Notes under the pieces: model-generated | What the model was told of the DNA's origin: nothing | Seen by the model: only the letters and a program-made list of their open reading frames with translations | The model's database searches: none | NCBI GenBank assembly: GCA_035624785.1 | Contig: DASPQV010000042.1 | Span: forward strand, 999-64,998 | Length of the DNA: 64,000 nt | Reading direction: 5' to 3' | Source: Candidatus Binatia bacterium | GTDB taxonomy: Bacteria; Chloroflexota; Dormibacteria; Aeolococcales; Aeolococcaceae | Translations under genes and position numbers: made by a program | In this document: positions 6,595 through 64,000 of the stretch, in pieces | Layout of the letters: each line of letters begins with the position of its first letter | Position numbering within the stretch: position 1 is the first letter of the stretch

Positions 6595-6595
6595 G

Positions 6596-43640: not shown

Positions 43641-43668
43641 CGCAAGGCTATCGGGGGAGGCTAGACGC

Positions 43669-44262: not shown

Positions 44263-44282
44263 GGCGCAGGGGCGCGCCGAGG

Positions 44283-45059: not shown

Positions 45060-45078
45060 GTCCGTAGAATATCCCGGG

Positions 45079-46677: not shown

Positions 46678-46679
46678 CC

Positions 46680-46976: not shown

Positions 46977-47016
46977 GCGCCCGGGTACTCCCGCTGCCCA
47001 CCCTGACCCCGGTCTT

Positions 47017-47559: not shown

Positions 47560-47785
47560 GGCCTCCCCCTCCATCCAGAGGCAGCGCGGGGAGGGCTCAT
47601 GCCGGCTCCGATCGGTCCTCACTTCCGGCGAACGGTCGCCGCCCCATGGTAAGGGCAGTCCGCCCAGCCTCCGGGAAAAGATCGTGTCGCGAAAGTGTTG
47701 CCTCCGCGAAGACGGCCACGGCGGGGACCAGAATCGCCATGGCGACGCGGCCCGCGGGCGGCCGCGCACCCACCAGGAGTTCACC

Positions 47786-49060: not shown

Positions 49061-49141
49061 CCTCCAGGCTCGGCCGGTCGGCGGCGGCGTTCGCCGGCGG
49101 CTCGCCGCCGCCGGAGCGGGCGCGGCCGCTCCGAGCCGGCC

Positions 49142-50338
49142 TCAGACCCCGAGGATCTCGAGGATGCGGCGCTCGTCGATGGGCGGGCTGGACGGCCGGG
49201 CGAGCAGGAAGCCCTGGCCGTGGGTCACCCCGATGTTGCGAAGAGCGCGCAGCTCAGCCTCGGTCTCGATGCCCTCGGCGACGATGGTGGTCTGGGTCTC
49301 CCGGGCGAAGGCCACCAGAGCGTAGGAGAGGGCCCGCCGCGGCCGGTCACCGTCGATCCCGCGGGTGAGCGAGATGTCGAGCTTGATGATGTCGGGGGAG
49401 AGCAGGAGGATGTGCCGAAGACTCGCGAACCCGGCCCCGGCGTCGTCGACCGCCACCCGCACTCCAGCGTCGCGAAGCGGACGCAGGACCCGGGCCAGCG
49501 CCTCGTAGTCGGCCACCGGGGCGTGCTCGGTCATCTCCATGACGATCCGGTCCTCGGGCACCGCGCCCAGCATGTCGCCGAGGTCGCGATGCAGCAGGGT
49601 GGTCGGTGACACGTTGAGGGAGAGGTAGGCGCTGGTGGGCAGCTCCGGCAGACCGGCCAGAGCCGCGCTGATCGCGAAGGTCTCGAGGTCCTCGCGCAGG
49701 CCGACGTCCTCCGCCTCCTGGAACCACTGCAGAGGCATGCCGGTATCGAAGCGGGCCAGCGCCTCGACCCCGCTGACCAGGCCTCGGGCCAGGTCGACGA
49801 TGGGCTGGTAGACGGGCCGGACCCCGCCGTGCTCGATGACCGTGCGGATCCGGGTCAGGATCCTCTCCCTGGCGGCCTCGGCGGCCTCCTTGCCGGCCAG
49901 CTCGCCGCTCAGCTCTCGGACCACCGTGCTGGCCACGTCGGCGGAGAAGGCGGACTCGCCGCGAAGCACCCGCTGGATGGTCTTGGTGACCTCGTCGGGC
50001 ATGGAACCCTTGACCAGGTAGGCGCTGGCACCGGCGCGGAGCATCTCCAGGATGCTGGCCCGGTCGCCGTAGGCGGAGAGGGCGACGATGCGGGTCTCCG
50101 GGCTGCCAGCCAGGATGCCCCGGGCAGCCTCGGGGCCGCCACCGCCGGGCATCTTGACGTCCAGGATGGCCACGTCCGGACGCTCCTTGATCGCCTCGGC
50201 GATGGCGGCGTCCGCGTCGGCGGCCACCGCCACCACCTCGAGACCGTCCTCGAGCTCGAGGAGCTCGCGGAGAGCATCGCGGATGTTGGCATCGTCATCC
50301 GCGATCAGCACCCTGACCCTGAGCTGGTCGCCGATCAC
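49142..50338 (-). CDS. response-regulator receiver fused to EAL domain (c-di-GMP phosphodiesterase)
   Basis: REC (VLIADDD...ILDVKMP...ALSA). EAL core has PVYQPIVDL, EALAR, EMTE, DDAGAGFASL, KLD and EGIET motifs. Confidence 0.85.
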   Translation of the reverse strand: MIGDQLRVRVLIADDDANIRDALRELLELEDGLEVVAVAADADAAIAEAIKERPDVAILDVKMPGGGGPEAARGILAGSPETRIVALSAYGDRASILEMLRAGASAYLVKGSMPDEVTKTIQRVLRGESAFSADVASTVVRELSGELAGKEAAEAARERILTRIRTVIEHGGVRPVYQPIVDLARGLVSGVEALARFDTGMPLQWFQEAEDVGLREDLETFAISAALAGLPELPTSAYLSLNVSPTTLLHRDLGDMLGAVPEDRIVMEMTEHAPVADYEALARVLRPLRDAGVRVAVDDAGAGFASLRHILLLSPDIIKLDISLTRGIDGDRPRRALSYALVAFARETQTTIVAEGIETEAELRALRNIGVTHGQGFLLARPSSPPIDERRILEILGV

Positions 50339-50644
50339 GCGGCCGTCCCCTCGAAGGTCCGGGCCGGCGCTCCCGGCATCCAGACCAGCAACCCGGTCCC
50401 CGAAGCGGAGCCCGGCTCGATGCGGAGCCAGCCGCCAGCGCTGGCCAGCACCCGCGGGGGCCGGACCTGGTCAGCACGCCGGGGGAGTCGAAGGCGGGCG
50501 GCGCCTTCCACAGCGGAACCGCTCACTGTCGGGTCGAGTGTAGGAAGCCGGTGGACGGCGCCCCGCCCTCGTGCATCACCGAAACGGCTTGGTCAGCGCC
50601 CCGTCACCATGGCCGCCGCCCCGTCACGTCGCGGCCGCCGAGCG

Positions 50645-52294
50645 CTACCCCTCGGTGGTCGGTTGGAACAGCTCCTCGGCGACCAGCTCGCCCTGGGCGC
50701 GCAGCGTCTCCATCGCCCTGGGAATGATGCCGGTCGGGGTCATCTCGCCGATCACCTGACCGGTGTCAGGATCGATCCCCCGCTGTCGGAAGGTGAAGAT
50801 CTCCTGCTGGCATACCTCTCCGCCTTCGGCGCCCAGCACCTCGGTGATGCTCACCACCTTGCGGGTGCCGTCGCGAAGACGGGACTGGTGAACGATGACG
50901 TTGATGGCCGAGCCGATCTGCTCGCGGATGGCACGGGAGGGCAGCTCCGCGCCGGCCATCAGGACCATGGTCTCCAGACGGCTGATGCAATCCCTGGGGT
51001 TGTTGGCGTGGAGCGTGGTCAGCGACCCGTCGTGACCGGTGTTCATGGCCTGGAGCATGTCCAGGGCCTCCCCGCCGCGGCACTCGCCCACCACGATCCG
51101 GTCCGGGCGCATCCGCAGGGCATTGATGACCAGCTCCCGGATGGTCACCCGGCCGCGCCCCTCCACGTTGGCCGGCCTGGTCTCCAGGGTGACCACGTGC
51201 TCCTGGCGCAGCTGCAGCTCGGCGGCGTCCTCGATGGTGACTATCCGCTCGTCCTCGGGGATGAAGCTCGAGAGGATGTTCAGGGTGGTGGTCTTTCCAG
51301 AGCCAGTGCCGCCCGAGACCACCATGTTCAAGCGGGCCCGGACGCAGGAGCGCAGGAAGGTCACCATGCCCGCGGTCACGGAACCGAACCGGAGCAGGTC
51401 GTCGGAGGTCAGGGCCTCCTTGGCGAACTTCCGGATGGTGACCACCGGGCCGACCAGGGACAGCGGGGGGATGATGACGTTGACCCGGGACCCATCCTTG
51501 AGGCGGGCGTCGACCATCGGCGACGACTCGTCCACCCTCCGGCCGACGGTGCTCACGATCCGGTCGATGACCTGCATCAGCTGTTCCGTGCTCTCGAACA
51601 CCACCGGGCTGCGCACCAGCTTGCCCCGCTCTTCGACGTAGACCTGCTCCGGGCCGTTGACCATGATCTCGGTCAGCTCCGGGTTGGCGAGCAGCTCTTC
51701 CAGGGGACCCAGACCCAAGACGTCGTGGATCAGGATCTCGATGACCCGCTGCCGGTCCTGACGGCTGAGGGTCAGGCTCTGCTCGACGATGACCTCGCTG
51801 ACCAGCTCGGCGATCTTCTGCTCCACCACGTCGGGAGGCGCGGAGTCGGTGTTGCCAGCCAGCTCCTCGACCAGCCGCTGATGAACGCGGGAGCGGAGCT
51901 GGCTGTACGCGCCGCCCTGCTGCCTGGGGTGGACCCGGGAGCCGGCGGTCCGGTTGAGCAGTGACGCGGCCCGGGGACCGTCCGGCGGGCCACCCGGCTC
52001 GGCGCCCCTGCCGAGCAGGTGGGGGGGCACCGGCGGGGCGGGAGCGGACCGGCCGTAGGTGGGAACCGCGGGCTGCCGGGCCGGCGAGGCCGGCGCCGGA
52101 GGGTTGGTGACCAGGGACCGCGCCAGCCAGGCCGGCCTCTCGGACGCCGGCTCGGAGACCGCCGGGGCCTGGCCCGGGCCGGGCGTCTGCCCCGGGGCGG
52201 GCGGCAGCGGCTGAGCCGGAGCCTGCGGGGAAGGCGCCGGTGGGGCGGCGTTGCCTTCCTCGGCCTTGCGCTGGACGCGATCGAGAAGCGACAT
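50645..52294 (-). CDS. cpaF: second CpaF/TadA-type secretion ATPase with ~170-aa Pro-rich N-terminal region
   Basis: [63 protein letters not shown]. Confidence 0.85.
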   Translation of the reverse strand: MSLLDRVQRKAEEGNAAPPAPSPQAPAQPLPPAPGQTPGPGQAPAVSEPASERPAWLARSLVTNPPAPASPARQPAVPTYGRSAPAPPVPPHLLGRGAEPGGPPDGPRAASLLNRTAGSRVHPRQQGGAYSQLRSRVHQRLVEELAGNTDSAPPDVVEQKIAELVSEVIVEQSLTLSRQDRQRVIEILIHDVLGLGPLEELLANPELTEIMVNGPEQVYVEERGKLVRSPVVFESTEQLMQVIDRIVSTVGRRVDESSPMVDARLKDGSRVNVIIPPLSLVGPVVTIRKFAKEALTSDDLLRFGSVTAGMVTFLRSCVRARLNMVVSGGTGSGKTTTLNILSSFIPEDERIVTIEDAAELQLRQEHVVTLETRPANVEGRGRVTIRELVINALRMRPDRIVVGECRGGEALDMLQAMNTGHDGSLTTLHANNPRDCISRLETMVLMAGAELPSRAIREQIGSAINVIVHQSRLRDGTRKVVSITEVLGAEGGEVCQQEIFTFRQRGIDPDTGQVIGEMTPTGIIPRAMETLRAQGELVAEELFQPTTEG

Positions 52295-52385
52295 CCTCGC
52301 TTACGGGCTCCTCGGCGGCTCGGCAGCCGCGGCGGATCCTGACGTTCTTGCCCAGGCTACAACTGGCAGCGATCGCATCGAATCA

Positions 52386-52481
52386 GTGGCCTGCAACGAT
52401 CGTGTCGAAAGCTTTCACCCGGGTACCACGCCGAGGGCATGGTCGCGCCTCCGGGGGCGCGATTCTCGGGTGGCCTGCAAC
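52386..52481. promoter_or_regulatory. 13-bp direct repeat pair in divergent cpaF-2 / CAP-gene intergenic region
   Basis: GTGGCCTGCAACG at 52386-52398 and at 52469-52481, 83 bp apart, between divergent starts. Confidence 0.3.
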
Positions 52482-52532
52482 GGGGTTGTCACGGAGGCAT
52501 GACAGGCCCGCGGGAGCGTCTCCGGCCGCGGT

Positions 52533-53642
52533 GTGATCCAGGCCGTGATCCATGCGGAGGCGGAGCCGGCAGCGATCGCCACGAGCGCGGCGGAGGCGGC
52601 CGAGGACCCGCCCAGCCAGGCCTGGGAGACCCTCTGCCGCACCGCCGACCTGGTCAGGGCGGACGGACCAGCGGCCCCGGCCGGGAGGCACGGTTGGGGC
52701 CGGCGCGCCCTGCTCGCCGCCGGGCTGGTGGCCGCCGGGTTGTCGGTGGCGGCGGTCTGGCACACCCAGCCGGCCAGCGCCGACGGGGGCGCCGACGCCG
52801 ACCTCTTCGCCCTGACCAACCAGGACCGGGCGAGCAACGGCGTCCCCGCCCTGGTCGACAACTCCACCCTCAGCTCGATCGGCGAGAACGCTCCCTACAG
52901 CGGGTGCAGCGGAGCCGGCACCGTCAGCGGCCGAGCTCAGGACATGATCAACCGCGACTACTTCTCCCACCAGATCCCGCCGTGCGGCCAGTACGTGTGG
53001 CCGATGATGACCGCCTACGGCGTCGACTACCGATCGGCCGGCGAGAACATCGGCTGGGTCGGCGGGATCAGCGGCGCTGACAGCGCCGCCCAGTGGATCA
53101 ACAACGCCTTCATGAACAGCCCCGACCACCGCGCCAACATCCTCGACCCCAGCTACACCGACCTGGGGACGGGAAGCGCCCAGACCGCCTCCGGCCAGTC
53201 CTGGACCTGCCCGGCGTCGGAGGGCTGCCAGGGCAGCTACCAGCAGGTATGGATCTTCGCCGAGGAGTTCGCCCAGCTTGCCGCCGCCCCCAAGCCGACG
53301 CCCACGCCCACGGCGCGGCCGACCGCGACGCCCAAGCCAGCGCCAGCCTCCACGCCCACACCGGCTCCCCAGCCCACCTCGACGCCGGCGCCCAGCTCGG
53401 CCCACCCGTCACTCGTCTCCTCCCCCTCCGCGGCCTCCCCCCCGACCGCCGCCACCTCACCGACCCCGGTCACGACGACAGTCCCGACGCCGAGCCCGAA
53501 CCCCGCCCCCACGGCACCGGCGACATCCTCCACGGTCCCGGCGGCAGCCCTGGAGACCGCCCTCCCCGCCCTCGACTTCCGCGGCCTGGGGCTGATCTCC
53601 GACACCATCGAATCGACCCTGGAAGCGTTCCTCTTCGACTAG
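52533..53642 (+). CDS. CAP/SCP (PR-1/YkwD-like) domain protein with Pro/Thr-rich C-terminal region, secreted or membrane-anchored
   Basis: Hydrophobic segment RRALLAAGLVAAGLSVAAVW, then DLFALTNQDRASNGVPALVDNSTL...NRDYFSH...GENIGW...NNAFMNSPDHRANILDPSYTDLGTG, typical of the CAP domain. Followed by ~120 aa of PT repeats. Start is uncertain. Confidence 0.7.
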   Translation: MIQAVIHAEAEPAAIATSAAEAAEDPPSQAWETLCRTADLVRADGPAAPAGRHGWGRRALLAAGLVAAGLSVAAVWHTQPASADGGADADLFALTNQDRASNGVPALVDNSTLSSIGENAPYSGCSGAGTVSGRAQDMINRDYFSHQIPPCGQYVWPMMTAYGVDYRSAGENIGWVGGISGADSAAQWINNAFMNSPDHRANILDPSYTDLGTGSAQTASGQSWTCPASEGCQGSYQQVWIFAEEFAQLAAAPKPTPTPTARPTATPKPAPASTPTPAPQPTSTPAPSSAHPSLVSSPSAASPPTAATSPTPVTTTVPTPSPNPAPTAPATSSTVPAAALETALPALDFRGLGLISDTIESTLEAFLFD

Positions 53643-53712
53643 AGTTGCGGACAATGTCGCCACATACAAGCGGGCGCCGCGTCCACCCCGGTCAACTCCC
53701 GACCCCGCAACG

Positions 53713-54543
53713 ATGGAGCGGATCCTGAGCGAAGACAGCAGCGCCGCCGCGCCCTCCGGCCCGCCCCCGGTGATCCGGGTGGAGGCGCTCTCCAAGAGCT
53801 TCCACATCAGCCGCATGCCGCGGGCAGTGCTGCGCAGCCTGTCCTTCAGCGTCGCGGCCGGTGAGTTCGTGGCCGTGATGGGTCAGAGCGGGGTCGGCAA
53901 GAGCACCCTGCTGCACATCATGGGCGGCCTCGAGCCCCCGGACTCGGGGCGGGTGGTGATCGATGGACGCGACGTGTACGCCATGGGCGACGCGGAACGG
54001 TCGGCCTTCCGGCGGGACCACGTCGGGTTCGTCTTCCAGTTCTTCAACCTGGTGCCCAGCCTCACCGCGGCGGAGAACGTCGCCCTGCCGCTCAGGCTGC
54101 GGACCGCACGGCATGGGGACGGCGCGGCCCGGCTGGACCGGCACACCATCGCCGAGCGGGTGAACGCGCTGATGGACCTGCTCTCCCTCCGCGGCCTCCA
54201 GGGGCACGGTCCCGAGGAGATCTCGGGGGGCGAGCAGCAGCGGGTGGCCATCGCCCGGGCCCTGGCCGCCGCTCCCACGCTGCTGCTCGCCGACGAGCCC
54301 ACCGGCAACCTCGACCGTCCCAGCGGTGACGAGGTCATGGGGCTGCTCAGCCGGCTCTGCCGGGAGCGATCCCAGACCACGGTGCTGGCCACCCACAACG
54401 CGCGGGTCGCCGCCCGCGCCGACCGCGTCCTGGTCCTCCAGGACGGAGCGCTGGTCGACGACATCGTGATCGCGACCGGCACCCATGCGGACGCTGGCGC
54501 CTTCCGGGAGCTGGTCGGCCGGCTCGAGCGCCATGACCTGTAG
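53713..54543 (+). CDS. ABC transporter ATP-binding protein (LolD/MacB-type)
   Basis: Walker A GQSGVGKSTLL, signature ISGGEQQRVAIARAL, Walker B LLLADEPTGNLD. Confidence 0.9.
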   Translation: MERILSEDSSAAAPSGPPPVIRVEALSKSFHISRMPRAVLRSLSFSVAAGEFVAVMGQSGVGKSTLLHIMGGLEPPDSGRVVIDGRDVYAMGDAERSAFRRDHVGFVFQFFNLVPSLTAAENVALPLRLRTARHGDGAARLDRHTIAERVNALMDLLSLRGLQGHGPEEISGGEQQRVAIARALAAAPTLLLADEPTGNLDRPSGDEVMGLLSRLCRERSQTTVLATHNARVAARADRVLVLQDGALVDDIVIATGTHADAGAFRELVGRLERHDL

Positions 54544-54600
54544 CGCCGCGCCGGAGGCCGCGGCCGGCCAGGGTCGGGAGGTCACCTCGACCGAGCCCGC

Positions 54601-57075
54601 GTGATCCGCCCCCTCTTCACCCGCCACCTGACGGCGCGCCCCGGCCGGACCGCCCTGACCGCCCTCGCCGTGTGCCTGGGCGTGGCCGTCATGCTTGGCG
54701 TCCAGGTCGATCTCGCGGGGGTGAGCGCCGAGGCCGAGGCGGCGGCGGGGCTGCGAGCCGGCGCCTCAGGGTTGGACGTTCGGGCGACCGGCGCCAGCGG
54801 TCTCAGCACCGATCAGATCGCCGACCTCGCCGCCCTCCAGGGCGTGACCCAGGTGGTGCCCCTCTATCAGAAGAGGGTGATCGCCGAGGCGGCGCAGCCC
54901 GGAGCTGTCACGGCCACGGTGACTGTGGTCGGGATCCAGGACGGGGGCGCGGCACTGCGGCGGGTGACCCTGACCGCCGGCCGTCTTCCCCGGGCATCGA
55001 GCTCCGACGAGGTCGCCCTGGACAGCGGGCTGGCACAGGCGCTCGCCCCAACCGGACGGCGTCTCGCGATCGGCGGCACCGTCATGCTGACCACCAGCAC
55101 CGGGACCAGCGGCTTCCGGGTGGTCGGGCTGACGTCGGCCAGCGGCGTCAGCGCGAGCTTCACCCAGGACGCGGTCTTCATGCCCGCCGCGGAGCTGCTC
55201 CGCGCCTTCCCGCTCGGCCTCCACGCCTCGCTGGCCGCGCTGCAGCTCGGGCCTCGAGCCAATGCAGCCCAGGTTGCCGCCCGGGCTCGGGGACGGCTCG
55301 GGAGCACGATCACCACCTTCGACCCCGCATCGGACACCGGCGATCCGCTCTCCCAGGTCTCCTCGCTTCTCCTCCTGATCAGCGTGCTCAGCATCGTGGT
55401 CGGCGCCGGGGTCACCGCCAACACGGTGAGCCTGGCGGCCCTGGAGGGACGCCGCGAGATCGGCCTGCTGCGAGCCGCCGGCGCGTCGGCTGGCCAGGTA
55501 TTCCGGCTGCTGACCAGCGAGGCCCTGGTGATCGCGGCGGCCGGCGCGGTCGTGGGCGTCGGTGCCGGCATCGGCCTGGGTGCCGCTCTGCAGGCGGCTT
55601 ACGGAACCGGGCAAGCATCCCCCGTGCCTCTCCGGGTCGACTGGCTGACCGCGCTCCTGGTGGCCCTCGGCGGCATCGTCGCCGCCACCCTCGCTGCCGC
55701 GGTGCCCGCCCTCGCCGCGGCCCGGCAGCCCATCCTCGACGCCCTGAGCCCGGAGACCGCCGGCCGCCGGGAGCCTCTGCGGGGCTGGACCCTGGGAGCC
55801 GCGCTGCCCCTGGTCGCGCTGGCCGCGGTCGCCGACCTCGGTGGGGCGGGGCTGGTGCCAGTCGGGGCGGTCGCGCTCCTCCTCGCCATCCTCCTCTGCC
55901 TACCCCTGGTGGTGCCGCCGCTGACCCGGCTGCTCGCCCGCCTGCTGCGCACCCTGCTGCCCGAGTGCGAGGTCGCCGCGGCCGGGCTGAGCCGCAACCG
56001 CAACCGCACCGCCCTGACCCTCTCCGGCTTGGTCACCGCGGTGGCGGCAGCCAGCGCCTGCAGCATCCTGGTGGCGGGAAGCTCGTCGGCAGCCGACCAG
56101 TGGGTCGACCACCTCTTCATCGGCGACACCCTGGTCCGCAGCCCGGTCACCGAGCACCCGGCCGTCGCTTCGCAGCTCAGCCAGCTGGCCGGCGTCGAGG
56201 TAACCCCGCTGCGATTCTTCCCGGCGGTCGTGGACAGCGACGTGATCGGCGTGGTGGCGCTGGACAGCCGTGCCCAGGAGGCCGGCGGCGCGTTCCAGAT
56301 GGTCGCCGGCGATCGCGGCGACGCCTTCGCCGCCCTGAGAGGCGGAGCCAACCTGCTGGCTCCGTCAGTCCTGGCGGATGCCGACGACTGGCAGGTGGGC
56401 ACCGAGCTGCCCGTATCCACCCCGACAGGAACGGTCATCTTCCGAGTCGCCGGCATCCTCGAGCACTCCTTTCCTGCTGCCGACGGCCGGGAGTCGCTGG
56501 TCATCGACAACCGGGAGGCGGTCCGGGTCTTCGGCAGCGACGCGGACGGATTCGACGACCTGGAGGTGCTCTCCCCGGGGCGGGGGGCCGACGTGGTCAG
56601 GACGGCGAGCCGTTACGGTCTGTCCGCCACGCCGGTGAGCGCCATCAGAGCCGCGGTGGAATCAGCCCTCGGCTCGACGATCGGAATCCTGCCGGCGCTC
56701 TCCTGGATCACCGTGATCATCGCCATGCTCGCCCTGATCACCACCGTCTCGGTCAGCGTCCGCAGCGGCCGGCGCGAGCTGGCCCTGCTCCGGGTGGTCG
56801 GCCTCAGCGCCTCGCAGATCCGCCGCTTCGTGCTCGCCCAGGCTGGGTTCCTGGGCGTCGCCGCCGCCCTGGTGGGCACCGGGGTGGGCTGTCTGCTCGC
56901 CCTGCCGATGCTGCAGGCGGGCGCCAGCCCGGGGTTCGCACCCGCGTTTGCCCTGCCGGCCCTCACCGTGGTGGTGGTCGCGGCCGGAGTGGTGGCCTCA
57001 GCGGTGGCCGCCGCCGTCCTGCCGGCGCGCCGAGCGGCGCAGGCTGACATCGTGAGCGCGGTGCAGCGCGTATGA
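54601..57075 (+). CDS. FtsX-family ABC permease with duplicated FtsX domain (824 aa)
   Basis: Two units of TM + large extracytoplasmic loop + 3 TM. Directly downstream of the ATPase gene. Confidence 0.8.
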   Translation: MIRPLFTRHLTARPGRTALTALAVCLGVAVMLGVQVDLAGVSAEAEAAAGLRAGASGLDVRATGASGLSTDQIADLAALQGVTQVVPLYQKRVIAEAAQPGAVTATVTVVGIQDGGAALRRVTLTAGRLPRASSSDEVALDSGLAQALAPTGRRLAIGGTVMLTTSTGTSGFRVVGLTSASGVSASFTQDAVFMPAAELLRAFPLGLHASLAALQLGPRANAAQVAARARGRLGSTITTFDPASDTGDPLSQVSSLLLLISVLSIVVGAGVTANTVSLAALEGRREIGLLRAAGASAGQVFRLLTSEALVIAAAGAVVGVGAGIGLGAALQAAYGTGQASPVPLRVDWLTALLVALGGIVAATLAAAVPALAAARQPILDALSPETAGRREPLRGWTLGAALPLVALAAVADLGGAGLVPVGAVALLLAILLCLPLVVPPLTRLLARLLRTLLPECEVAAAGLSRNRNRTALTLSGLVTAVAAASACSILVAGSSSAADQWVDHLFIGDTLVRSPVTEHPAVASQLSQLAGVEVTPLRFFPAVVDSDVIGVVALDSRAQEAGGAFQMVAGDRGDAFAALRGGANLLAPSVLADADDWQVGTELPVSTPTGTVIFRVAGILEHSFPAADGRESLVIDNREAVRVFGSDADGFDDLEVLSPGRGADVVRTASRYGLSATPVSAIRAAVESALGSTIGILPALSWITVIIAMLALITTVSVSVRSGRRELALLRVVGLSASQIRRFVLAQAGFLGVAAALVGTGVGCLLALPMLQAGASPGFAPAFALPALTVVVVAAGVVASAVAAAVLPARRAAQADIVSAVQRV

Positions 57076-57689
57076 CGGGCCCCAGGCTGGGTGCCCTAGT
57101 GGCCCTGGCGGTCCTGCTCGGGGGATGCGGGAGCCCCACGTCGCCACTGCTGCTGCGCGGTGATCCGCGCGGCTACCTGCTCAGCCTGGAACAGCTTCCC
57201 TCGCCGGACTTCACCGTGTACAGCGGGGCCGCCGCCACCGATGCGGGCTGGCTGGATACCGGCAGCGCCGCGACGCTGACCCGCGACGGGTTCCAGGCAG
57301 CGGCCACCGTCGAGTACCTCCGCCAGGGCGAGCTGGTGGACTTGGCGACGAGCAACGGCCCGATCACCCTCACCTCCGCGGTGGCCAGGTTCGCGAGCCC
57401 CGGCGGAGCGGCGGCCGCAGTCGGCAGCCTGGCGTCGGCTCTGAATGCACGGGCCGGCGCCGTCCCGCTCTCGACCGGGCCGCTCGGAGACGGCGGCCAC
57501 GCGGTTTCCAACAGCGCCACCCTCGACTCCGTGGCGGTGGTCCGGATCACCGTGGTGTGGCGGGTCGCCAACCTGGTCAACAGCCTGGCCGCTGACGGGC
57601 GCTCCGGAGGCCTCGACCTCGACCAGCTCCTCCCGGTGGCCCGGGCGCAGACGGCGGCCGAGCAGGCCTCGACGGGCGCCTCCGGGTAA
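57072..57689 (+). CDS. putative lipoprotein
   Basis: Signal peptide with lipobox LLGGC. 4-nt overlap with the permease gene. Confidence 0.6.
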   Translation: MTGPRLGALVALAVLLGGCGSPTSPLLLRGDPRGYLLSLEQLPSPDFTVYSGAAATDAGWLDTGSAATLTRDGFQAAATVEYLRQGELVDLATSNGPITLTSAVARFASPGGAAAAVGSLASALNARAGAVPLSTGPLGDGGHAVSNSATLDSVAVVRITVVWRVANLVNSLAADGRSGGLDLDQLLPVARAQTAAEQASTGASG

Positions 57690-57722
57690 GGCCACCGCGC
57701 AGAAGCCACCCCCACCCGGCGG

Positions 57723-59576
57723 TCAGGCGGCGTGGTGGCCCAGGCCCGCGCCCAGGGGGCGGTCCTCGCAGAGCAGACGGTGCACCTCGGCGGGGGGCAC
57801 CGGCCGGGAGAACAGGAAACCCTGGTAGGCGTCGAGGCTGTGGCCCTCGAGCCGCATCAGCTGCTCCTCGGTCTCCACGCCCTCGGCGATCACCCGGAGC
57901 CCGAGGCTGCGTCCCAGGGTCACCAGGGCGCAGAGCAGAGCGCCGGGATCGGGAACCGTCTCCGTCCCGGCCTCGTCGAGAAGGAAGCTGCGGTCGATCT
58001 TGATGGTGCTGACCGCGAGGTGATGGAGCTTGCCCAGGTTCGAGTACCCGGTGCCGAAGTCGTCCAGGGAGATGGTCACCCCCCGGCTGGCCAGGGCCCG
58101 GAGGACCTCGGAGGCTGCATGGGAGTCGACCATGGCCGCCGACTCCGTGATCTCCAGCTCGAGGACGTTGGGCGGCGTGTCCGTCTCGCCGAGGCAGTCC
58201 AGCACGGTGGTGACCAGGCTGCGGTCGAGGAGCTGGCGGGATGAGACGTTGACCGCGACGCGGATGCGGCCCAGCCCTTCACGCCGCCACTCGGCAGCCT
58301 GGGAGAGGGCGGAGCGGAGCACAAAGCGGCCGATGTCGGCGATGACACCCACGTCCTCCGCGATGGGGATGAATCGACCCGGGGGCACCTCGCCGAGCAC
58401 CGGGTGGTGCCAGCGGCAGAGCGCCTCCAGCCCGACGATGCGCCGTGATTGGGCGTCGACCTCGGGCTGGAAGACGACGCTGATCTCGCCCCGGTCGAGA
58501 GCGAGGGGAAGCTGCTGCTCGATGAGCAGACGATCCTCGGCCTCCTCGGAGAGCGCCATCTCGAAGCGGAGCAGCCGCTCTGCGGTGGACCTGGCCCCCC
58601 GCTCCGCCATCGCCGCGTGCCGCATCAGGGTCTCGGCGCTGTCCCCGTCCGAGGGAGCGACGACGATGCCGATGCTGGCGCTGAGGCGCAGGTCGCCGCC
58701 CGTCTCGCTGCAGGGGGACGAGATGGCCGCGATGATCGAGCGGGCCATGTAGACGGCCTCCTCGACGAAGACCAAGTCGGGGAGGAGGACGGCGAACTCG
58801 TGGTCCGACCAGCGGGCGACCATCCAGGCCCGCTGCGCAGCGCTCCGCTTGAGGGCGTCAGCGGTCTCTTCGGCGCTGCCGACCGCGACCTCGACGCAGT
58901 CGGACACCCGCTCGGCCATCTCGGTTATGAGCCTCTCGCCGGCCTCGTGGCCGAGGGTCTCGATCACGGTGCGGAGACGCTCGACGCCGATGAGCAGGAC
59001 ACCGGTCGAGCGACCCGAGGGGCGGGCGGCGGGGAGCTCGGCCCCCAGGCGCCAGCGGAAGGCGGAGCCATTGGGCAGCCCGGTGGCCCGGTCGTGGGAC
59101 GCGTCGAACTCCTTCTCCCGGGCGATGCGGTCGCGCTCCGAGGCCCAGCGGGTGACGTCGATGCCGACCGAGGTGACCGCGGCGGGATGGCCGCTGTCGT
59201 CGAAGCTCGGGCAGGCGGACCAGGCGACGATCCGGGTGCGGCCGTCGCGCGCCCGGAGCGGAAGCTCGATGCAGCCGGCCTCCTCACCGTCCCGGAGAGC
59301 GCGATCGAAGGCGCGCTGGGCGCGCCGACGGTGCTCGGCCGGGACCAGGGCCTCGTGCCACAACCGCCCCGCCAGCTGCCCCCATTCCCATCCGCCCAGG
59401 GAGAGCAGGTCCGCGTTGGCGAACGCAAGCCGCCCCCCCGGGTCGGTGATCATCGCCAGGATCTGATTCGCCCTGCCCGGGCGCTCATCCCCGCTTGCAA
59501 ACTCCGGATGGCACCGCGGCCCTTCGGCAAGCATCGGGTGCGACCTCTCCGTACTCCGCCGTTCTCCCCCCGGCAT
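57723..59576 (-). CDS. PAS - degenerate GGDEF - EAL protein (c-di-GMP phosphodiesterase)
   Basis: PAS-like N-terminus. The GGDEF domain starts RATGLPNGSAF but its signature reads SDHEF instead of GG[DE]EF. EAL domain has EALCRWHHP, ELEITE, DDFGTGYS, KIDRSF, EGVETEEQ. Confidence 0.85.
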   Translation of the reverse strand: MPGGERRSTERSHPMLAEGPRCHPEFASGDERPGRANQILAMITDPGGRLAFANADLLSLGGWEWGQLAGRLWHEALVPAEHRRRAQRAFDRALRDGEEAGCIELPLRARDGRTRIVAWSACPSFDDSGHPAAVTSVGIDVTRWASERDRIAREKEFDASHDRATGLPNGSAFRWRLGAELPAARPSGRSTGVLLIGVERLRTVIETLGHEAGERLITEMAERVSDCVEVAVGSAEETADALKRSAAQRAWMVARWSDHEFAVLLPDLVFVEEAVYMARSIIAAISSPCSETGGDLRLSASIGIVVAPSDGDSAETLMRHAAMAERGARSTAERLLRFEMALSEEAEDRLLIEQQLPLALDRGEISVVFQPEVDAQSRRIVGLEALCRWHHPVLGEVPPGRFIPIAEDVGVIADIGRFVLRSALSQAAEWRREGLGRIRVAVNVSSRQLLDRSLVTTVLDCLGETDTPPNVLELEITESAAMVDSHAASEVLRALASRGVTISLDDFGTGYSNLGKLHHLAVSTIKIDRSFLLDEAGTETVPDPGALLCALVTLGRSLGLRVIAEGVETEEQLMRLEGHSLDAYQGFLFSRPVPPAEVHRLLCEDRPLGAGLGHHAA

Positions 59577-60051
59577 CCGCCGGGCTTGTTGCCCGGATAT
59601 GGTGGCCTGGGACGATGGGCGTGAAAGACGCTCTCAACCAGCCTGGCGCGTCCAGGCGACACCAACGTCATCGTCACCACATCAGATGGCCTCCTGTGAC
59701 GCCACGTTGCTGAGACCTCTCATCTGCGCTCAGCGGGGCGGGAGACGGGGGTGGGCGGGGCCGTCGGCGACGGGGGCCGGCCCGACTCAGGCGGTCAGCC
59801 CGCTTCCCCGGGCGGCGCTCACCGGCGTCCCGGGTGACGGGGCAACCTCAGAGCGTAGCGATCCTCCCGATCTCCCACCATCGCCTCATATGAATCAATC
59901 AAGTTCATCGCCGCCACCCAACCGCGTTACCGGCCTGTAGCCGGATGGGCCGAGACATCGTCAGACGGTCTGCCTCAGCCTACCCGGTGGCGTCTAGTGC
60001 ATTTGAACTAGTTGCCCCATCAGATCAGAACCAGGAAAGGAACCGAAGATC

Positions 60052-60711
60052 ATGGAAAGGCTCAGGAGAAGGCGGTCACTCCGGCTGGCGTTCACCCTCA
60101 GCACCGCCGTCGCCGGCTGCGCACTGGTGGGGTGGGGTGGGTTGTCGGCCTGGCAGGCCTACACCGTCAACGCCGGCAACCAGGTGGCGGCGGGCACCCT
60201 CGCCCACAGCAACGGGGCGAGCTGCGTCTCCCTTCTCGGCACGATCCCGACGAGCTCAGGGACCGGCTGGTGCTCGGCCGCGGTGACCATCTCCGGCGTC
60301 GACCCGGCGAACTGGACCGGAACCACCGGCACCATAGCGATCGCCAACACCGGATCGCTGCAGAGCACCTTCGCCCTCAGCATGGGGACGGGAGCTCAGA
60401 CACCGACCGGCGGCCTCTGCGCCGACGTGACCCTGCAGGTGACTGATCCGAACCACGCCGCGCCGGACTCGACCGGCCAGGTGTGGGCAGCCACAGCTCT
60501 CACCGGGACGTTCACGGCTGCCAACCTTTACAACAACGCTGCGACGCCCAGCCTGACGTGGACCGGCGGCGGCGCGCAGGGTTCGGGCTCGGGCGCGACC
60601 GGTGACACCTTCACCGTGACGGTGGCGCCCGGTGCCGGTTTCAACACCCACTCCACCGACGCGGGGACGAGCTGCAGCTTCGGGCTGCTCTTTACCCAGA
60701 CAGCGGCCTGA
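60052..60711 (+). CDS. TasA/camelysin-like secreted protein, paralog 1
   Basis: N-terminal RRRRSLRLAFTLSTAVAGCALVGWGGLSAWQAYTVNAGN resembles a SipW-cognate-type signal (compare TasA LVGGGTWAAFND). Internal IANTGSLQSTFALSMG resembles the TasA N.GSL motif. Thr/Gly/Ala-rich, 219 aa. Strong SD AGGAAAGGAA. Confidence 0.6.
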   Translation: MERLRRRRSLRLAFTLSTAVAGCALVGWGGLSAWQAYTVNAGNQVAAGTLAHSNGASCVSLLGTIPTSSGTGWCSAAVTISGVDPANWTGTTGTIAIANTGSLQSTFALSMGTGAQTPTGGLCADVTLQVTDPNHAAPDSTGQVWAATALTGTFTAANLYNNAATPSLTWTGGGAQGSGSGATGDTFTVTVAPGAGFNTHSTDAGTSCSFGLLFTQTAA

Positions 60712-60723
60712 GGCAGGACGCCA

Positions 60724-61404
60724 GTGACTACGCATGAGTTCAAGGAGATGAGGACCATGGAGAAGCGCATGGGCAGGCGATCCCTGAAGGTCGCCCTGGT
60801 GGCCTTCACGGCGGTCGCAGGGACCGCGCTGGTCGGCTGGGGCGGGTTGGCGGCCTGGAACGCCTACACAGAGAACGCGGGGAACAGCGTGGCGGCCGGC
60901 ACCCTCACCCACAACAACTACGTGAGCGCCAACTGCGCCTCCAACCTGGGGACGGTCCCGGTTTCGAGCGGCCCTGGCTGGTGCTCCGCCTTCATCACGG
61001 TAACCAATGTCGACCCGGCGGCTGGCCTGCCAGTCACCGGCAACGTCAAAATCGATAACACCGGCTCATTGCAGAGCACATTCGCGATGAGCATGCCGGC
61101 GGCGGCGGTGGGGACCGGGGGAACGATCTGCCAGGACCTGACCTTGTCGATGACCGACAAGAACGGCACCAACGTCTACCCGGCCGCCGCTCTTAGCACC
61201 CAGATGGGCTCGACGAGCCTCAAGAACAACGCGGCGACGCCGTCGACGACCTGGTCGCCCAACGGGGTGGCCGGAACCGGCTCAGGTGCCACCGGCAACA
61301 CCTTCACCTTCACAGTGGCAGCGGGCGGCGGCTTCGCGAACGACTTCGCTGACGCGGGCCAGAGCTGCAGCTTCAACATCCTCTTCACCCAGACTGCGGC
61401 CTGA
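60724..61404 (+). CDS. TasA/camelysin-like secreted protein, paralog 2
   Basis: Same architecture as paralog 1: ...ALVGWGGLAAWNAYTENAGN...IDNTGSLQSTFAMSMP...; about 50% identical by eye. True start is probably an internal ATG (MEKRMGRRSLK...). Confidence 0.6.
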   Translation: MTTHEFKEMRTMEKRMGRRSLKVALVAFTAVAGTALVGWGGLAAWNAYTENAGNSVAAGTLTHNNYVSANCASNLGTVPVSSGPGWCSAFITVTNVDPAAGLPVTGNVKIDNTGSLQSTFAMSMPAAAVGTGGTICQDLTLSMTDKNGTNVYPAAALSTQMGSTSLKNNAATPSTTWSPNGVAGTGSGATGNTFTFTVAAGGGFANDFADAGQSCSFNILFTQTAA

Positions 61405-61423: not shown

Positions 61424-61463
61424 GAGAGGCCGGGCGGTGCGCCGCCCGGCCTCTCTCTTTGTG
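61424..61463 (+). terminator. rho-independent terminator after the TasA-like pair
   Basis: GAGAGGCCGGGCGG-TGCG-CCGCCCGGCCTCTC: a perfect 14-bp stem and 4-nt loop, followed by TCTTTGTG. Confidence 0.8.
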
Positions 61464-61714
61464 CCGTTGACAGCGGCAGGCGGGTGCTAGCCGGTGGGTG
61501 CGCGGTGGCCCAGTCGCCGTACACCCGGGGCAGCGGAGGCAGGATCTGGATCCCCTCATCGGCGCGGACCAGGTCCCAGCCGGCCTCGTGCACCTTCCAG
61601 TGATGGTGCCGGCGGATCAGGACAACGTTGGTGAGCTCACTCGGTTGCGCTCCCGGCCCCCCGCGCTTATCTGCCGTGGCCCCGAGGCCCGTTTTCACCG
61701 TCGTGCGAGGGAGC

Positions 61715-62038
61715 TCACCCTCCAGCCGGAGCACTCCCCGGAAGAGGATCGCGCCAGTACCAGCGGTGGATCTTCTCAGCGAACTCCCGCGTACCAGCTG
61801 CCGGGTGCCCGAGGCCGAAATGGTGGCTCATCTGCTGATCGAGGAAGGACTCCAGCTGGTCTTGGGACATGCCCCCACGGAGCTGGCCGATTACTCCGAG
61901 AAGGCAGTCATACTCGTCTGGAGGGGCAGGATGTGACGTCCCGTACACCCCGATTGGATCCCACTCGGCAAGGATCGCCCGAAGCTCCGTTTGCTTCTGG
62001 CGCAGCGCGTACTTGTGGCGCGAAATGTCGTCGGGCAC
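61715..62038 (-). CDS. small hypothetical protein (107 aa)
   Basis: ORF in the lower-GC islet. LRAILAEWDPIGVYG...PDEYDCLLG, acidic and cytosolic-looking. Possible family match (a WDPIG-containing DUF), unverified. Confidence 0.45.
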   Translation of the reverse strand: MPDDISRHKYALRQKQTELRAILAEWDPIGVYGTSHPAPPDEYDCLLGVIGQLRGGMSQDQLESFLDQQMSHHFGLGHPAAGTREFAEKIHRWYWRDPLPGSAPAGG

Positions 62039-62211
62039 TATCGACAGACTAGCAGCGTCGCCGACGAGTGCTTAGAGCATCCCTACCTCCTTTTGGTGAA
62101 AGCCTGCAGGCCACCGTTGCACGGACGGCAGAGTCGGTCCTCGAGACGGATAGGGAAGCGTCTAGATTGACCAACTTGATCAGATTGGCCGCCTCATTCC
62201 AGGGTAGGGAA

Positions 62212-62239
62212 GGGGATGTGTTAAGGACGTGCGAGGTTG
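62212..62239 (+). repeat. 28-bp conserved element, copy 1 (SD + ATG-TGT-TAA mini-ORF)
   Basis: GGGGATGTGTTAAGGACGTGCGAGGTTG. The TTG at its 3' end is the start of ORF 62237. Confidence 0.6.
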
Positions 62240-62728
62240 ACCGAGGTCACCCGGCCTCAGCCGGAACCCGGGTCGGTCGCATACTCTCCGCGAGTGCGAG
62301 AACGAGACGAGTACGAGTCCGGTTGGGCCGAGCTGGGGCGCCGGCGACTGGCGGGCGAACTTTCAACGCCCGAAGCCTCTGCCCTCGCGCTGACAAGCAT
62401 TAGGCGCATAGCCCAGCGGATCGTCGCCAGCGACGCGGACCTGTTGCGCGCCGCGGTAGGCATCTACTTCTTCGCTTGGTTCGGAGGAGACTGGGACGAT
62501 GATCAACCAGCCGAGGAGCTGAAGCACTGGGGTGCTGAGTTCATCCAACTCGCCGATGCGTTGGAATGCAACCAGGACGACGAAGCATCGCGCGAGGCCT
62601 GGACTGCGTTCATCCGCAAGGCAGCTACCGCTGGTTTGGCTGGTGAGGAGTTCCCGGCTTGGAGCGATGCCCCCAGTGCTCGTCCGCCTCATCGAGGCTT
62701 CCCGGAGCCGGAGGAGGGGATGTGTTAA
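62237..62728 (+). CDS. hypothetical protein (163 aa, acidic, Trp-rich)
   Basis: TTG start embedded in repeat copy 1. Ends ...EEGMC, whose last two codons plus the stop are the mini-ORF of repeat copy 2. Confidence 0.45.
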   Translation: MTEVTRPQPEPGSVAYSPRVRERDEYESGWAELGRRRLAGELSTPEASALALTSIRRIAQRIVASDADLLRAAVGIYFFAWFGGDWDDDQPAEELKHWGAEFIQLADALECNQDDEASREAWTAFIRKAATAGLAGEEFPAWSDAPSARPPHRGFPEPEEGMC

Positions 62729-62743
62729 GGACTTGTGAGGTTG
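62716..62743 (+). repeat. 28-bp conserved element, copy 2
   Basis: GGGGATGTGTTAAGGACTTGTGAGGTTG (25/28 identical to copy 1). Confidence 0.6.
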
Positions 62744-62753
62744 CTCGCCTAGA

Positions 62754-63266
62754 TCACCCCAGTGCATCCGCGAGGGATCGCGCTGCGTCGAGGAGCGCTG
62801 CCAATCGCCCCTCCCAGTCTGAGCCCTCGACGCCCAGAACCGCCAAGTTCGGTCGCACCAGCCATCGCTCACCGAATGGCGCCATCACCCACTCCACATG
62901 GAGCGGCACACCGATCGCCTCCATCTCACTGAAGTGGGAGCGGGCGCGGTCAACATGGCTGGACAAGGCCTGCATTTGGGCGTGAAAACGTTCGTTCTCA
63001 GCCAGCGTCCAAGCCTCCCCGATTGGAAGGTACTCTTGCCACCGCGGGTGGCGTCGAGCCTGACGCCCAGGGCGACATCCCTTCCATGGTGCGTGCTTCC
63101 TCGCGCCGGGCTGAGGAGCGTGCAGCCCTACCCACTCCCAGTCATCGATACGTTCGCGGAGTTCCCAGTCCTCAAGGTCACCCTGCCTGCGCAGCCAGAA
63201 CCAGAAGTTGAGCACCTCACTGACGTCCTCCTCCCAGAAAAACGTGGAGCCGCCGGGAACGAACAT
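62754..63266 (-). CDS. hypothetical protein (170 aa, Trp/Glu-rich)
   Basis: MFVPGGSTFFWEEDVSEVLNFWFWLRRQGDLEDWELRERIDDWEW... has protein-like composition. The plus-strand alternative is S/R/P-rich. Confidence 0.45.
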   Translation of the reverse strand: MFVPGGSTFFWEEDVSEVLNFWFWLRRQGDLEDWELRERIDDWEWVGLHAPQPGARKHAPWKGCRPGRQARRHPRWQEYLPIGEAWTLAENERFHAQMQALSSHVDRARSHFSEMEAIGVPLHVEWVMAPFGERWLVRPNLAVLGVEGSDWEGRLAALLDAARSLADALG

Positions 63267-63387
63267 GAGAACGACTCTATGCGATCACTGAGGGGCTGAG
63301 CGGGTGGCAGCAGTGCAATCCATTCAGACCGTGGCTAGTCGTGTGTTGCCCAGCCTTCCGGTTCGGCCCCGGCCTCCTCGGGGCTCA

Positions 63388-63415
63388 GGGGATGTCTTGA
63401 GGATTGACGAGGTTG
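63388..63415 (+). repeat. 28-bp conserved element, copy 3 (ATG-TCT-TGA mini-ORF)
   Basis: GGGGATGTCTTGAGGATTGACGAGGTTG (21/28 identical to copy 1, same SD-ATG-codon-stop-...GAGGTTG layout). Confidence 0.5.
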
Positions 63416-63515
63416 GTCAGCCCGGATGTGACAGCGATCGCTACCATGCCTGCCAACGATCCCAGGAGGTCTCGCAGACCTGGCCAGATTCGATCGTGCC
63501 GCGGCAATCTCGGCG

Positions 63516-64000
63516 GTGAGCCGACTTCGGCCCGAGGCTCGGGTTGCGTTCGCCGCGCTCGCAGCTGAGAGGCTGCTTCCGTACTACCGGCAGTTTCACG
63601 CGGAGACCCGCTGGGGAAGTGCGGGGCCTCTCGAGCGAGCTATCGACCTTGCTTGGGAGCACGTGACCATTCACCGCGTCTCCCACGAAGTCCTTCACGA
63701 GGCCTGCGGAGCGTGCGAGTTGGTCGTACCTGACACTGACGACTTCAGTACCCCCCTCGCTTCCCGGGCGCTAGACGCTGCGAGTGCCGCCCTCAGCGCC
63801 CTCCGGGCTTGCGAGAATCCGGCGCCGGAGATCGCCGCCGCGGCGGCCGAGAGCGCATGGGAGGCCGCCTTCGGGGCGGCCCAATTGAGACATGCGGTCA
63901 ACCCAGACGGCGTGCTGATCGCAACGCCCAAACAGCTCACCATCGCGGCGGCGAGCGATCTGGTCCGGCGCGAAGAAGCAGCTCAATCTGGTGCGCTCCG
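63516..64000 (+). CDS. hypothetical protein, 5' portion (runs off window end)
   Basis: Open frame from the stop at 63429-63431 to the window end. GTG at 63516 (CTG alternatives at 63450 and 63480, with AGGAGG at 63464-63469). Translation ...AAERLLPYYRQFHAETRWGSAGPLERAIDLAWEHV... is protein-like. Not in ORF track because it has no stop. Confidence 0.35.
   Translation, partial: MSRLRPEARVAFAALAAERLLPYYRQFHAETRWGSAGPLERAIDLAWEHVTIHRVSHEVLHEACGACELVVPDTDDFSTPLASRALDAASAALSALRACENPAPEIAAAAAESAWEAAFGAAQLRHAVNPDGVLIATPKQLTIAAASDLVRREEAAQSGAL

Follow-up and report, generated by a model that had tools for sequence, protein, structure and literature searches.

Candidate mobile gene cassettes in tandem within a split DUF222-HNH gene

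Introduction

Why do several small genes, alternating in strand and unlike their surroundings in base composition, stand in a row with nearly the same 28 nucleotides between them? The question is raised by one end of a 64-kb stretch of DNA (the window, positions 1–64000) from a Candidatus Binatia bacterium (GenBank GCA_035624785.1, contig DASPQV010000042.1). The window is core chromosome, with rpoB/rpoC-sized genes. A preliminary description, made from the letters alone, had drawn attention to an islet at 61464–64000 with a lower guanine-plus-cytosine (GC) content, four small open reading frames (ORFs) and a repeated 28-bp element. Here we compare this islet with related contigs, which we designate by L-numbers (L001, L003, L006 and so on). 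We put at roughly 0.6 the probability that it is a tandem array of small mobile gene cassettes, held at one fixed position of a DUF222-HNH gene and moved by site-specific recombination. In our best reading the array is integron-like in its logic, is not an integron, and fits no described system.

Results

The islet lies inside a split gene

The islet is the lowest-GC 2.5 kb of the window, as first described, with 64.6% GC against 70.8% for positions 1–59800; some 300-nt windows within it go down to 58.7–61%. Codon-position GC backs the frames of all four ORFs, which encode proteins of 107, 163 and 170 aa and one partial protein on alternating strands. GC at third codon positions is 0.69–0.73 in these genes and 0.87–0.94 in host genes (neighbouring and core), and the cassette genes are compositionally foreign. 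At the strong terminator placed upstream of the islet there is indeed a hairpin, which lies at 61424–61455, is followed by a T tail, and looks like a terminator; it was the only one found. A scan for sigma-70 promoters gave no sites.

The preliminary description did not contain the context of these genes: an HNH endonuclease gene is split here, and all of the array stands between its two parts. Directly to the left of the first cassette, on the − strand, an HNH C-terminal motif (…ELTNVVLIRRHHHWKVHEAGW…) is visible in the ORF translation. This C-terminal remnant (61528–61641, −; …ELTNVVLIRRHHHWKVHEAGWDLVRADEGIQILPPLP…) forms the far end of the array, its frame is backed by codon-position GC, and equivalents are found in L001 and L009. 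In a tblastn search with an intact member of the family (P0025), residues 368–404 aligned to window positions 61641–61528 with 47% identity (E 0.003). The other half lies beyond the window. L001, a near-identical metagenome contig retrieved through the 170-aa protein (identical to NCBI VEK76_10025), extends past the window end and carries at 8386–8508 a frameshifted DUF222 pseudogene. Its frame ends …HHLTHWARGGSTDLANLV-NC-stop (GGSTDLANLV, then NC-stop) exactly in a copy of the 28-nt element. The array therefore has the HNH C-terminal half of a DUF222-HNH gene on one side and the DUF222 N-terminal half of the same gene on the other.

We refer to the − strand of the window as the HNH strand, and to the elements as junctions 1–3 in the window and 4–5 in L001. 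From the C-terminal remnant inwards, the first feature is a 10-nt core, CAACGTTGTC (61622–61631, −), which reads N-V-V and has no 18-nt tail; here the last cassette rejoins the HNH frame, in the manner of an attR site. Cassette 1 (61642–62211, −) holds the 107-aa gene (61715–62038, −). Junction 1 (62212–62239, −) consists of CAACCTCGCA plus CGTCCTTAACACATCCCC and reads N-L-A-R-P-stop in the HNH frame. Cassette 2 (62240–62715, +) holds the 163-aa ORF (62237–62728), whose stop codon lies within junction 2 (62716–62743, −; N-L-T-S-P-stop in the HNH frame), as the preliminary description had it. Junction 1 had also been credited with the TTG start of this ORF; that TTG is only the first possible start, and with the 144 aa that NCBI annotates for this protein (P0145) translation would begin at a GTG at 62294. 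Cassette 3 (62744–63387, −) holds the Trp-rich 170-aa gene (62754–63266, −) and is followed by junction 3 (63388–63415, −), which reads N-L-V-N-P-Q-D-I-P-stop and has TTGA in place of TTAA. Cassette 4 (63416–64000, +), cut by the window end, holds a gene of the DUF416 family (Pfam DUF416, 3.5e-12). In L001 the DUF416 gene is followed by junction 4, a 172-aa gene (− in window orientation), junction 5 and the DUF222 N-terminal pseudogene. Gene orientation along the array thus alternates −, +, −, +, −. Units in the window array measure 0.5–0.7 kb with one gene each.

The 28-nt element

A pattern search recovered the three copies where they had been described, at 62212–62239, 62716–62743 and 63388–63415, all on the + strand and with 0, 0 and 2 mismatches to the pattern of the preliminary description. 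The chance expectation is 0, with no match in 100 dinucleotide-preserving shuffles. No further copy exists in the 64 kb, even with up to 8 mismatches allowed, and copies 4 and 5 lie just past the window end in L001. The window copies are mutually 79–93% identical, and the sequences flanking them do not align between copies.

Read on the HNH strand, each copy opens with CAACCTCGTC, the N-L-V codons of the HNH domain (N being the Asn of the H-N-H motif), and continues with a tail of about 18 nt that contains an in-frame stop. The tail consensus, AATCCTTAAGACATCCCC, halts the HNH frame two codons on. Across 13 internal junctions from four lineages, the information content came to 1.47 bits/nt for the core and 1.41 for the tail, against 0.27–0.46 for the upstream flank and 0.50 for the downstream flank. 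It is thus the 28-mer that is kept, and not the flank. Because the HNH flank is near-random and yet the 28 nt are conserved in all six lineages, these values argue for selection on the site. On its HNH-upstream side, an internal junction often resembles the preceding HNH residues, as in L003 (EGGQTGSNNLV and NYEPTDLSNLV) and L025 (HHVLHWGHGGDTNLV); in the window lineage this HNH-like flank has decayed. When the decayed flanks were aligned locally as DNA, noise prevented a repeat length from being defined.

The central tetranucleotide (element positions 10–13; window 62221–62224, 62725–62728 and 63397–63400) varies among the forms TTAA, CTAA and TTAG, and in nearly all copies it gives a stop on both strands. 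Among the 19 distinct copies over all loci, the + strand stop is present in all 19 and the HNH-frame stop in 17. The two-strand stop may insulate cassettes from read-through translation in both directions, or may simply belong to a protein-binding site. Every copy had been described as ATG, one codon and a stop; this holds for the three window copies and for only 15 of the 19. Copies 1 and 2, on either side of the 163-aa cassette, are sister variants: both have the rare GTGTTAAGGAC.TG.GAGG form, and at 93% identity they are closer to each other than to any other copy. A circle integrating through its own site would leave such a pattern, as would gene conversion.

Several known classes of site were considered for the element and set aside. 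On inspection it lacks the dyad symmetry of an Xer/dif-type or small serine-recombinase site. As a Tn3-family inverted repeat (GGGG…TAAG) it has the wrong length, and its copies are direct, not inverted. Repetitive extragenic palindromes, bacterial interspersed mosaic elements and miniature inverted-repeat transposable elements are disfavoured by the absence of a palindrome, by the absence of copies outside the islet in the 64 kb and by the single strand on which all copies lie. A protein-coding reading of the + strand frame, G-D-V-L-R-x-x-E-V, fails because the surrounding ORFs are in the wrong frame, and the HNH-strand reading explains the pattern. No inverted partner was found upstream, Rfam gave no match on the elements, viral contigs gave 0 element matches, and a BLAST search of the islet against plasmids gave no match. 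A scan of a genome collection gave 7 element matches. Only two of them, both in Candidatus Dormibacteraeota metagenome-assembled genomes (MAGs), look real; the others were single, chance-like or coding.

Cassettes are gained, lost and reordered among relatives

We compared the window with contigs that are about 99.9% identical to it where collinear, and with the more diverged L011. L001 is 99.9% identical to window positions 62738–64000 and then jumps to 61625. It lacks 61626–62737, and with it the 107-aa and 163-aa cassettes. The joint, …GCGAGCAA|TCTTGTCCTGATC…, lies within element 2, so that the 170-aa cassette is joined straight to the core of the HNH remnant (|TCTTGTCCTGATCTGC). L009 matches window 61523–62743 at 99.8% and then continues into unrelated DNA directly after the GGTTG of element 2; junction 2 is thus the breakpoint of both a deletion and a replacement. 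In L012 a different cassette adjoins the DUF222 half. L011 has the order DUF416 homologue, element, 170-aa homologue, element, a new gene X, element, 163-aa homologue, and the orientation of each gene relative to the elements is kept. Its homologues are 72–73% identical to the window cassettes, the 170-aa copy being 73% identical with both of its flanking elements, and identity reaches 96% at the start of the 163-aa gene. Cassette 2 accordingly has other neighbours in L009 and L011 than in the window.

In all these variants the breakpoints fall at, or within a few bases of, the 28-mer. The suggestion that the array is built of cassettes with a shared recombination junction is borne out in this sense: among relatives, individual genes have been gained, lost, replaced and reordered at the element. 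That the assembler created these joints by misjoining repeats seems unlikely, since 28 nt is shorter than the final assembly k (the contig names begin with k141).

The same codon is hit in other lineages

The preliminary description named as refuting evidence an element unique to the window and flanking proteins with conserved housekeeping orthologues. Neither is the case: the junction also occurs outside the window lineage, the 163-aa protein stands alone, and homologues of the 170-aa protein number just 24. Five other lineages have this junction behind the same codon, namely two Dormibacteraeota MAGs and three lineages that share their DUF222-HNH family. The junction lies directly after V374 in L006, L025, L026–L030 and L031–L032. 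L006 (1675–2925) gives Pfam matches to DUF222 and to HNH, the latter profile match being cut at position 34 of 47, and its ORF reads …GGRTELDNLV and then enters the element. The intact gene of L024, a paralogue or allele, offers the corresponding empty site: it is 99.93% identical to L006 over 1446 nt up to codon V374, after which L024 continues with TCTCTGTGCCGG (S-L-C-R, the beginning of SLCRPHH…) and L006 with the element, CATCGTTAAGACATCCCC.

In the set of the 120 closest DUF222-HNH proteins, the intact form (…NLVSLCRPHHRAVHEQGW…EPPP) accounts for 98. In 14 the chain stops two residues past NLV (in HR, NR, HP or DR) and 3 more read through the element, 17 in total. At least five shortened copies have an intact nearest neighbour at 96–99.7% identity, which indicates that the site was hit repeatedly, several times independently.

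The Dormibacteraeota DUF222-HNH gene itself behaves, to judge from its distribution, like a mobile multicopy element. L024 (9677–11122) and L006 (3129–1684) have unrelated neighbours, and their 99.93% identity begins 324 nt upstream of the start codon.

A second complete example is L025, where both gene halves are present, with two internal junctions and the order DUF222(1–374), element, GNAT gene, junction, a block of MST/DinB-like, SnoaL and two-component-system genes, junction, a short unit, and HNH residues 366–404. Its internal junctions retain HNH-coding sequence (HHVLHWGHGGDTNLV and HHLLQWGHGGETNLENLV), and its units reach about 5.7 kb. L003 has three junctions, and only an HNH-like remnant of about 20 codons stands beside the last; its cargo comprises a macrolide-type glycosyltransferase and a P-loop kinase. 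In L026–L030 an ABC transporter and a TetR gene lie behind the junction. Gene orientation is mixed in the L003, L025 and L031 arrays.

Proposed mechanism and the search for an enzyme

The docking point lies directly after the N-L-V codons of the HNH motif. Read on the HNH strand, a cassette opens with the 18-nt tail and closes with a short, decaying HNH copy finishing in CAACCTCGTC, and the core of one unit plus the tail of the next make up the 28-mer at each junction. The docking nucleotide is fixed, each joint has the short conserved site, all sites of an array have one polarity, and units are gained, lost and reordered at them, as in a site-specific cassette system. In the mechanism that we favour, cassettes would excise and re-insert by conservative site-specific recombination. 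The partners would be two 28-mers, or one 28-mer and an intact HNH gene, and the crossover would probably lie in or beside the invariant AACCT core. The enzyme would be encoded elsewhere, most likely as a tyrosine recombinase and less likely as the DUF222-HNH family itself. Each cassette presumably carries its own expression signals, because gene orientation is mixed.

The only recombinase found near any array was a generic Xer-like tyrosine recombinase in L025 (7451–8638, −), 1.4 kb upstream of the shortened DUF222 gene and divergent from it; it scored 44 bits against a cut-off of 265 bits for integron integrases. Beside this gene, a stretch of 55 nt shows homology with the DUF222 unit of L024, at the upstream edge of that unit. 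Annotations of L001, L025 and L026–L031 contained no serine recombinase.

A number of observations weigh against the cassette reading. Pfam found no integrase among the 10 largest ORFs of window positions 41975–59633, precomputed Pfam labels showed no recombinase in L001 (10 kb past the array) or in L026–L031, and NCBIfam showed none on four L006 ORFs. The 28-mer has no dyad symmetry and no hairpin, which is unusual for the core sites of tyrosine or serine recombinases. The crossover is not cleanly mapped either: L009 and L001 point to the GGTTG edge, but the copies on both sides of the 163-aa cassette are sister variants, and in L011 the right half of copy 1 recurs beside another left neighbour, so that the evidence as to which half of the element travels with which cassette is ambiguous. 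In L026–L032 the sequence covered shows one junction only and lacks an HNH C-terminal part. Lastly, all data are metagenome assemblies. The missing dyad symmetry, the missing hairpin and the ambiguous linkage of half-elements to cassettes are what holds our confidence near 0.6.

Passive repeats or a nuclease as alternatives

One alternative is that the junctions are passive scars. A single ancestral insertion would have left an HNH fragment plus a tail, RecA-type recombination between these repeats and DUF222-HNH paralogues would have shuffled the genes, and the 28-mer would have no function. The 50–66 nt of HNH sequence retained at some internal junctions (L025, as given above) would suit such exchange, as would a gene family that is multicopy and very uniform, and in partial scans no recombinase adjoins most arrays. 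RecA normally uses repeats longer than 28 nt, however, and the repeats of the window lineage are only 28 nt long and 79–93% identical, below its usual need. Scars would also not be expected to keep 28 nt conserved over six lineages beside a near-random HNH flank, and the same nucleotide position has been hit repeatedly in otherwise intact, near-identical genes. We regard passive scars as an unlikely explanation.

The DUF222-HNH nuclease could alternatively drive the process. An intact enzyme would nick or cut AACCTCGTC in copies of its own gene, and cassettes that mimic the site would be copied or ligated in, by a homing-like or nick-primed route and with no classical recombinase. The target is the nuclease's own most conserved, motif-coding sequence; in the loci seen, every array adjoins a DUF222-HNH gene; this gene family is multicopy and seems to be mobile; and a recombinase was found beside one array only. 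On the other side, insertion wrecks the HNH domain, so the enzyme must come from another copy, and classical homing needs two-sided homology, whereas the homology at internal junctions is one-sided. We know of no precedent for nuclease-driven cassette insertion of this kind, and this route, too, seems improbable to us. A model of 5'-truncated copies, as left by long interspersed nuclear elements, was rejected, as recognisable HNH fragments start near the same residue (aa 353–357) and the HNH C-terminal part closes the arrays.

What the cassettes carry

The preliminary description had seen in the islet a possible array of orphan immunity or toxin-antitoxin genes. On such a reading the cargo would serve to neutralise toxins, as it does in rAID clusters and polymorphic-toxin loci. 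The genes are indeed small, acidic, Trp-rich, rare and compositionally foreign, with repeated intergenic sequences; a homologue of the 170-aa protein also stands in another repeat-bounded array (L015, below) with DUF4259 and ankyrin genes. The proteins themselves do not support such content. Pfam, NCBIfam and PADLOC gave no match to immunity, toxin or antitoxin families in the window proteins, DUF416 in the last ORF being the sole match, and there was no significant fold match. The 163-aa protein has no homologue but itself. The 24 homologues of the 170-aa protein, among 5.8 billion proteins, stand in unrelated contexts, with no array around the five others inspected (L013, L018, L021–L023); the AlphaFold model of this family has a predicted local distance difference test (pLDDT) score of 81 and no match in the PDB. 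The 107-aa family, with 451 representatives, has a confident four-helix AlphaFold model (pLDDT 91), and its best PDB resemblance is to 1u84, of unassigned function, at a non-significant E-value.

The layout tells the same way. The window array has no co-oriented gene pairs: neighbours lie on opposite strands with a junction between them. There are no toxin remnants, and because the HNH frame stops two codons past the joint, no displaced toxin tips are encoded. The cargo of sister arrays is of ordinary accessory kinds, with metabolic and resistance-like enzymes and transporters (genes for GNAT, SnoaL and DinB-like proteins, a glycosyltransferase, a kinase, a two-component system, and an ABC transporter with TetR). 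An immunity-gene or toxin-antitoxin array is on these grounds quite improbable. Defence is represented in one case: beside the shortened DUF222-HNH gene of L006, a gene at 371–1885 (−) matches the PADLOC phage-defence candidate PDC-S54 (E 2.7e-101), so at least one cargo gene of this array type is defence-related.

That the element is instead a control element, either a leader with a Shine-Dalgarno sequence and ATG-NNN-stop or an extracytoplasmic-function-type promoter (GGGAT-N18-GTT) for the downstream gene, is highly improbable: although the + strand stop stands in 19/19 copies and start-NNN-stop in 15/19, copies 1 and 3 precede + strand genes and the window copies fit GGGAT-N18-GTT, only 2/5 copies of the array have a same-strand gene downstream (what follows copies 2 and 4 is the 3' end of a convergent gene, and what follows copy 5 is the DUF222 pseudogene), the G run abuts the ATG with zero spacer, upstream flanks are unconserved, the start is TCG or TGG in 4/19 copies, the promoter-like hexamers are gone in L025, the HNH-frame stop is kept as well (17/19), TTAA, CTAA and TTAG being stops on both strands so that stop conservation is not specific to a mini-ORF, and the variant breakpoints are left unexplained.

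Discussion

Comparison with known systems

Integrons and clusters of attC sites lacking integrases (CALINs) offer the closest parallel (Cury et al. 2016, PMC4889954). As there, cassettes are mostly single genes, the end sites all have one orientation, there is one fixed dock, the cargo is accessory and foreign, and close relatives differ in which cassettes they have and in what order, the breakpoints lying at the sites (L001, L009, L011 and L012 against the window). The sites themselves are unlike. attC sites are imperfect inverted repeats of 57–141 nt that form a hairpin in single-stranded DNA, with R'' (RYYYAAC) and R' (GTTRRRY) boxes. The present site is linear, 28 nt long and without imperfect palindrome, hairpin or R''/R' boxes, apart from a partial GTTGRYY resemblance; single-stranded folds of 8 junctions with 90 nt of upstream flank gave no sign of attC-like folding (z −0.72 to +1.77 against shuffles). 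An integron requires intI, and attI by its first cassette, a CALIN does not, and the cassettes of both are mostly promoterless and co-oriented. Here no adjacent IntI was found in partial scans, genes point both ways, and the dock lies inside an HNH coding gene that the cassette site mimics.

The rAID-1 clusters of Bacteroidales (Ross et al., bioRxiv 10.1101/471110) have a 5' XerD-like recombinase and at least two co-directional low-GC genes homologous to immunity genes of the type VI secretion system. Repeated intergenic sequences and a skewed, low GC content are common to both; the present array differs in having no adjacent recombinase (in partial scans), mixed orientation, no sign of immunity function and a different phylum. 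Tycheposons (bioRxiv 10.1101/2020.12.28.424599) are elements of 10–20 kb with their own integrase and replication modules that target tRNA genes. Their islands, and tandem accretion at att sites, resemble the array in that partial copies of the target gene separate insertions, that gain, loss and duplication occur at repeats, and that changes are confined to the island. Here, too, a direct repeat of the target gene is found at every junction, internal ones and both array ends alike; it comprises the core CAACCTCGTC and, in addition, as much as 66 nt of HNH sequence. In contrast to tycheposons, the present units are 0.5–0.7 kb long (up to about 5.7 kb in L025) and carry no mobility genes, and the target is the middle of an HNH motif, which is inactivated and not restored.

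The target family has been used before. Bibb and Hatfull reportedly showed in 2002 that phiRv1 integrates into REP13E12 repeats in Mycobacterium tuberculosis. This prophage-like element is 9 kb long, encodes a large serine integrase and a directionality factor of its own, and makes a single insertion. DUF222-HNH is the '13E12 repeat family' in the plasmid-record annotation of a homologue, and in both cases a multicopy selfish gene serves as a safe landing site. The 12-bp core of phiRv1, GGTTGGCCGTGG (PMC3986857), shares GGTTGGC with the junction GAGGTTGGCAAG; these seven bases may be chance, and the core otherwise differs. In polymorphic toxin systems, orphan modules of toxin tips and immunity genes lie downstream of rhs/cdiA genes. 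They resemble the array in placing a short conserved piece of the main gene before each variable unit. Here, unlike there, the frame ends two codons past the motif without a variable tip, and the units are unrelated genes in both orientations. Searches of the literature on DUF222, 13E12 and Dormibacterota cassettes yielded no description of cassette arrays in DUF222-HNH genes.

Implications

Integron-type gene capture is known mainly from Proteobacteria and relies on folded attC sites and IntI. The present locus shows integron-like population behaviour in uncultured high-GC soil lineages, with a short linear site, no adjacent integrase found and a dock inside a selfish nuclease gene. There is a substantial chance that it represents a new kind of cassette platform. 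A more specific proposal, which we judge somewhat likelier to fail than to hold, is that DUF222-HNH genes would serve as docking platforms for undescribed, promoter-bearing mini-cassettes; a double-stranded, non-palindromic site of about 28 bp would mimic the NLV-coding sequence, the cassettes would be exchanged in soil populations of Dormibacteraeota and of the 'Binatia'-labelled window lineage, and they would be moved either by a recombinase encoded away from the arrays or by DUF222-HNH nucleases themselves.

If the cassettes are mobile, they would be a new route by which soil bacteria obtain accessory genes (acetyltransferases, a macrolide-type glycosyltransferase, a transporter, a phage-defence candidate). 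Mobility would also give a role, or a vulnerability, to the very abundant and unexplained DUF222-HNH/REP13E12 genes of Actinobacteria and their relatives, and the compact 28-bp site could be used as a recombination tool once the enzyme is found. Mobility is open to direct test, since one and the same sample can contain natural variants that have a particular cassette and others that lack it.

Other features

An unrelated array was seen in L015 (1027–15092; ENA ERZ25039470 contig_102742), where 16 same-strand copies of a 29-nt element, CAGGCGAGnnTCCGnCAATGTnnCTnGAG, separate small genes in both orientations (DUF4259, HAD, GNAT, ankyrin, MFS), one of which encodes the homologue of the 170-aa protein; an IS110-family transposase gene lies inside. 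Conservation is confined to the 29 nt, and the architecture is like that of the window array with a different sequence, which hints that short-junction cassette arrays may be a wider phenomenon.

The DUF416 frame of the window is open from 63432, with its first ATG, GTG or TTG only at 63516; an ATG at 63437, with a good AGGAGG nearby, is in another frame. An intact homologue is present in L011 (12–629; GTG start, MPVKRQTWPGFDRAG…), and the window form recurs in L001 and L010. The out-of-frame ATG and the intact L011 homologue together suggest that the window DUF416 gene is probably a frameshifted pseudogene.

To the left of the islet, a pair of genes for TasA/camelysin-like secreted proteins lies at 59921–61404. 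An inverted paralogous pair, with 68–89% nucleotide identity in patches, is found in L001 at 5802–7347 and has its own S26 signal peptidase and Tad-like genes. A pilus or fibre cluster is thus present in two inverted copies, one on each side of the split HNH gene with its cassettes.

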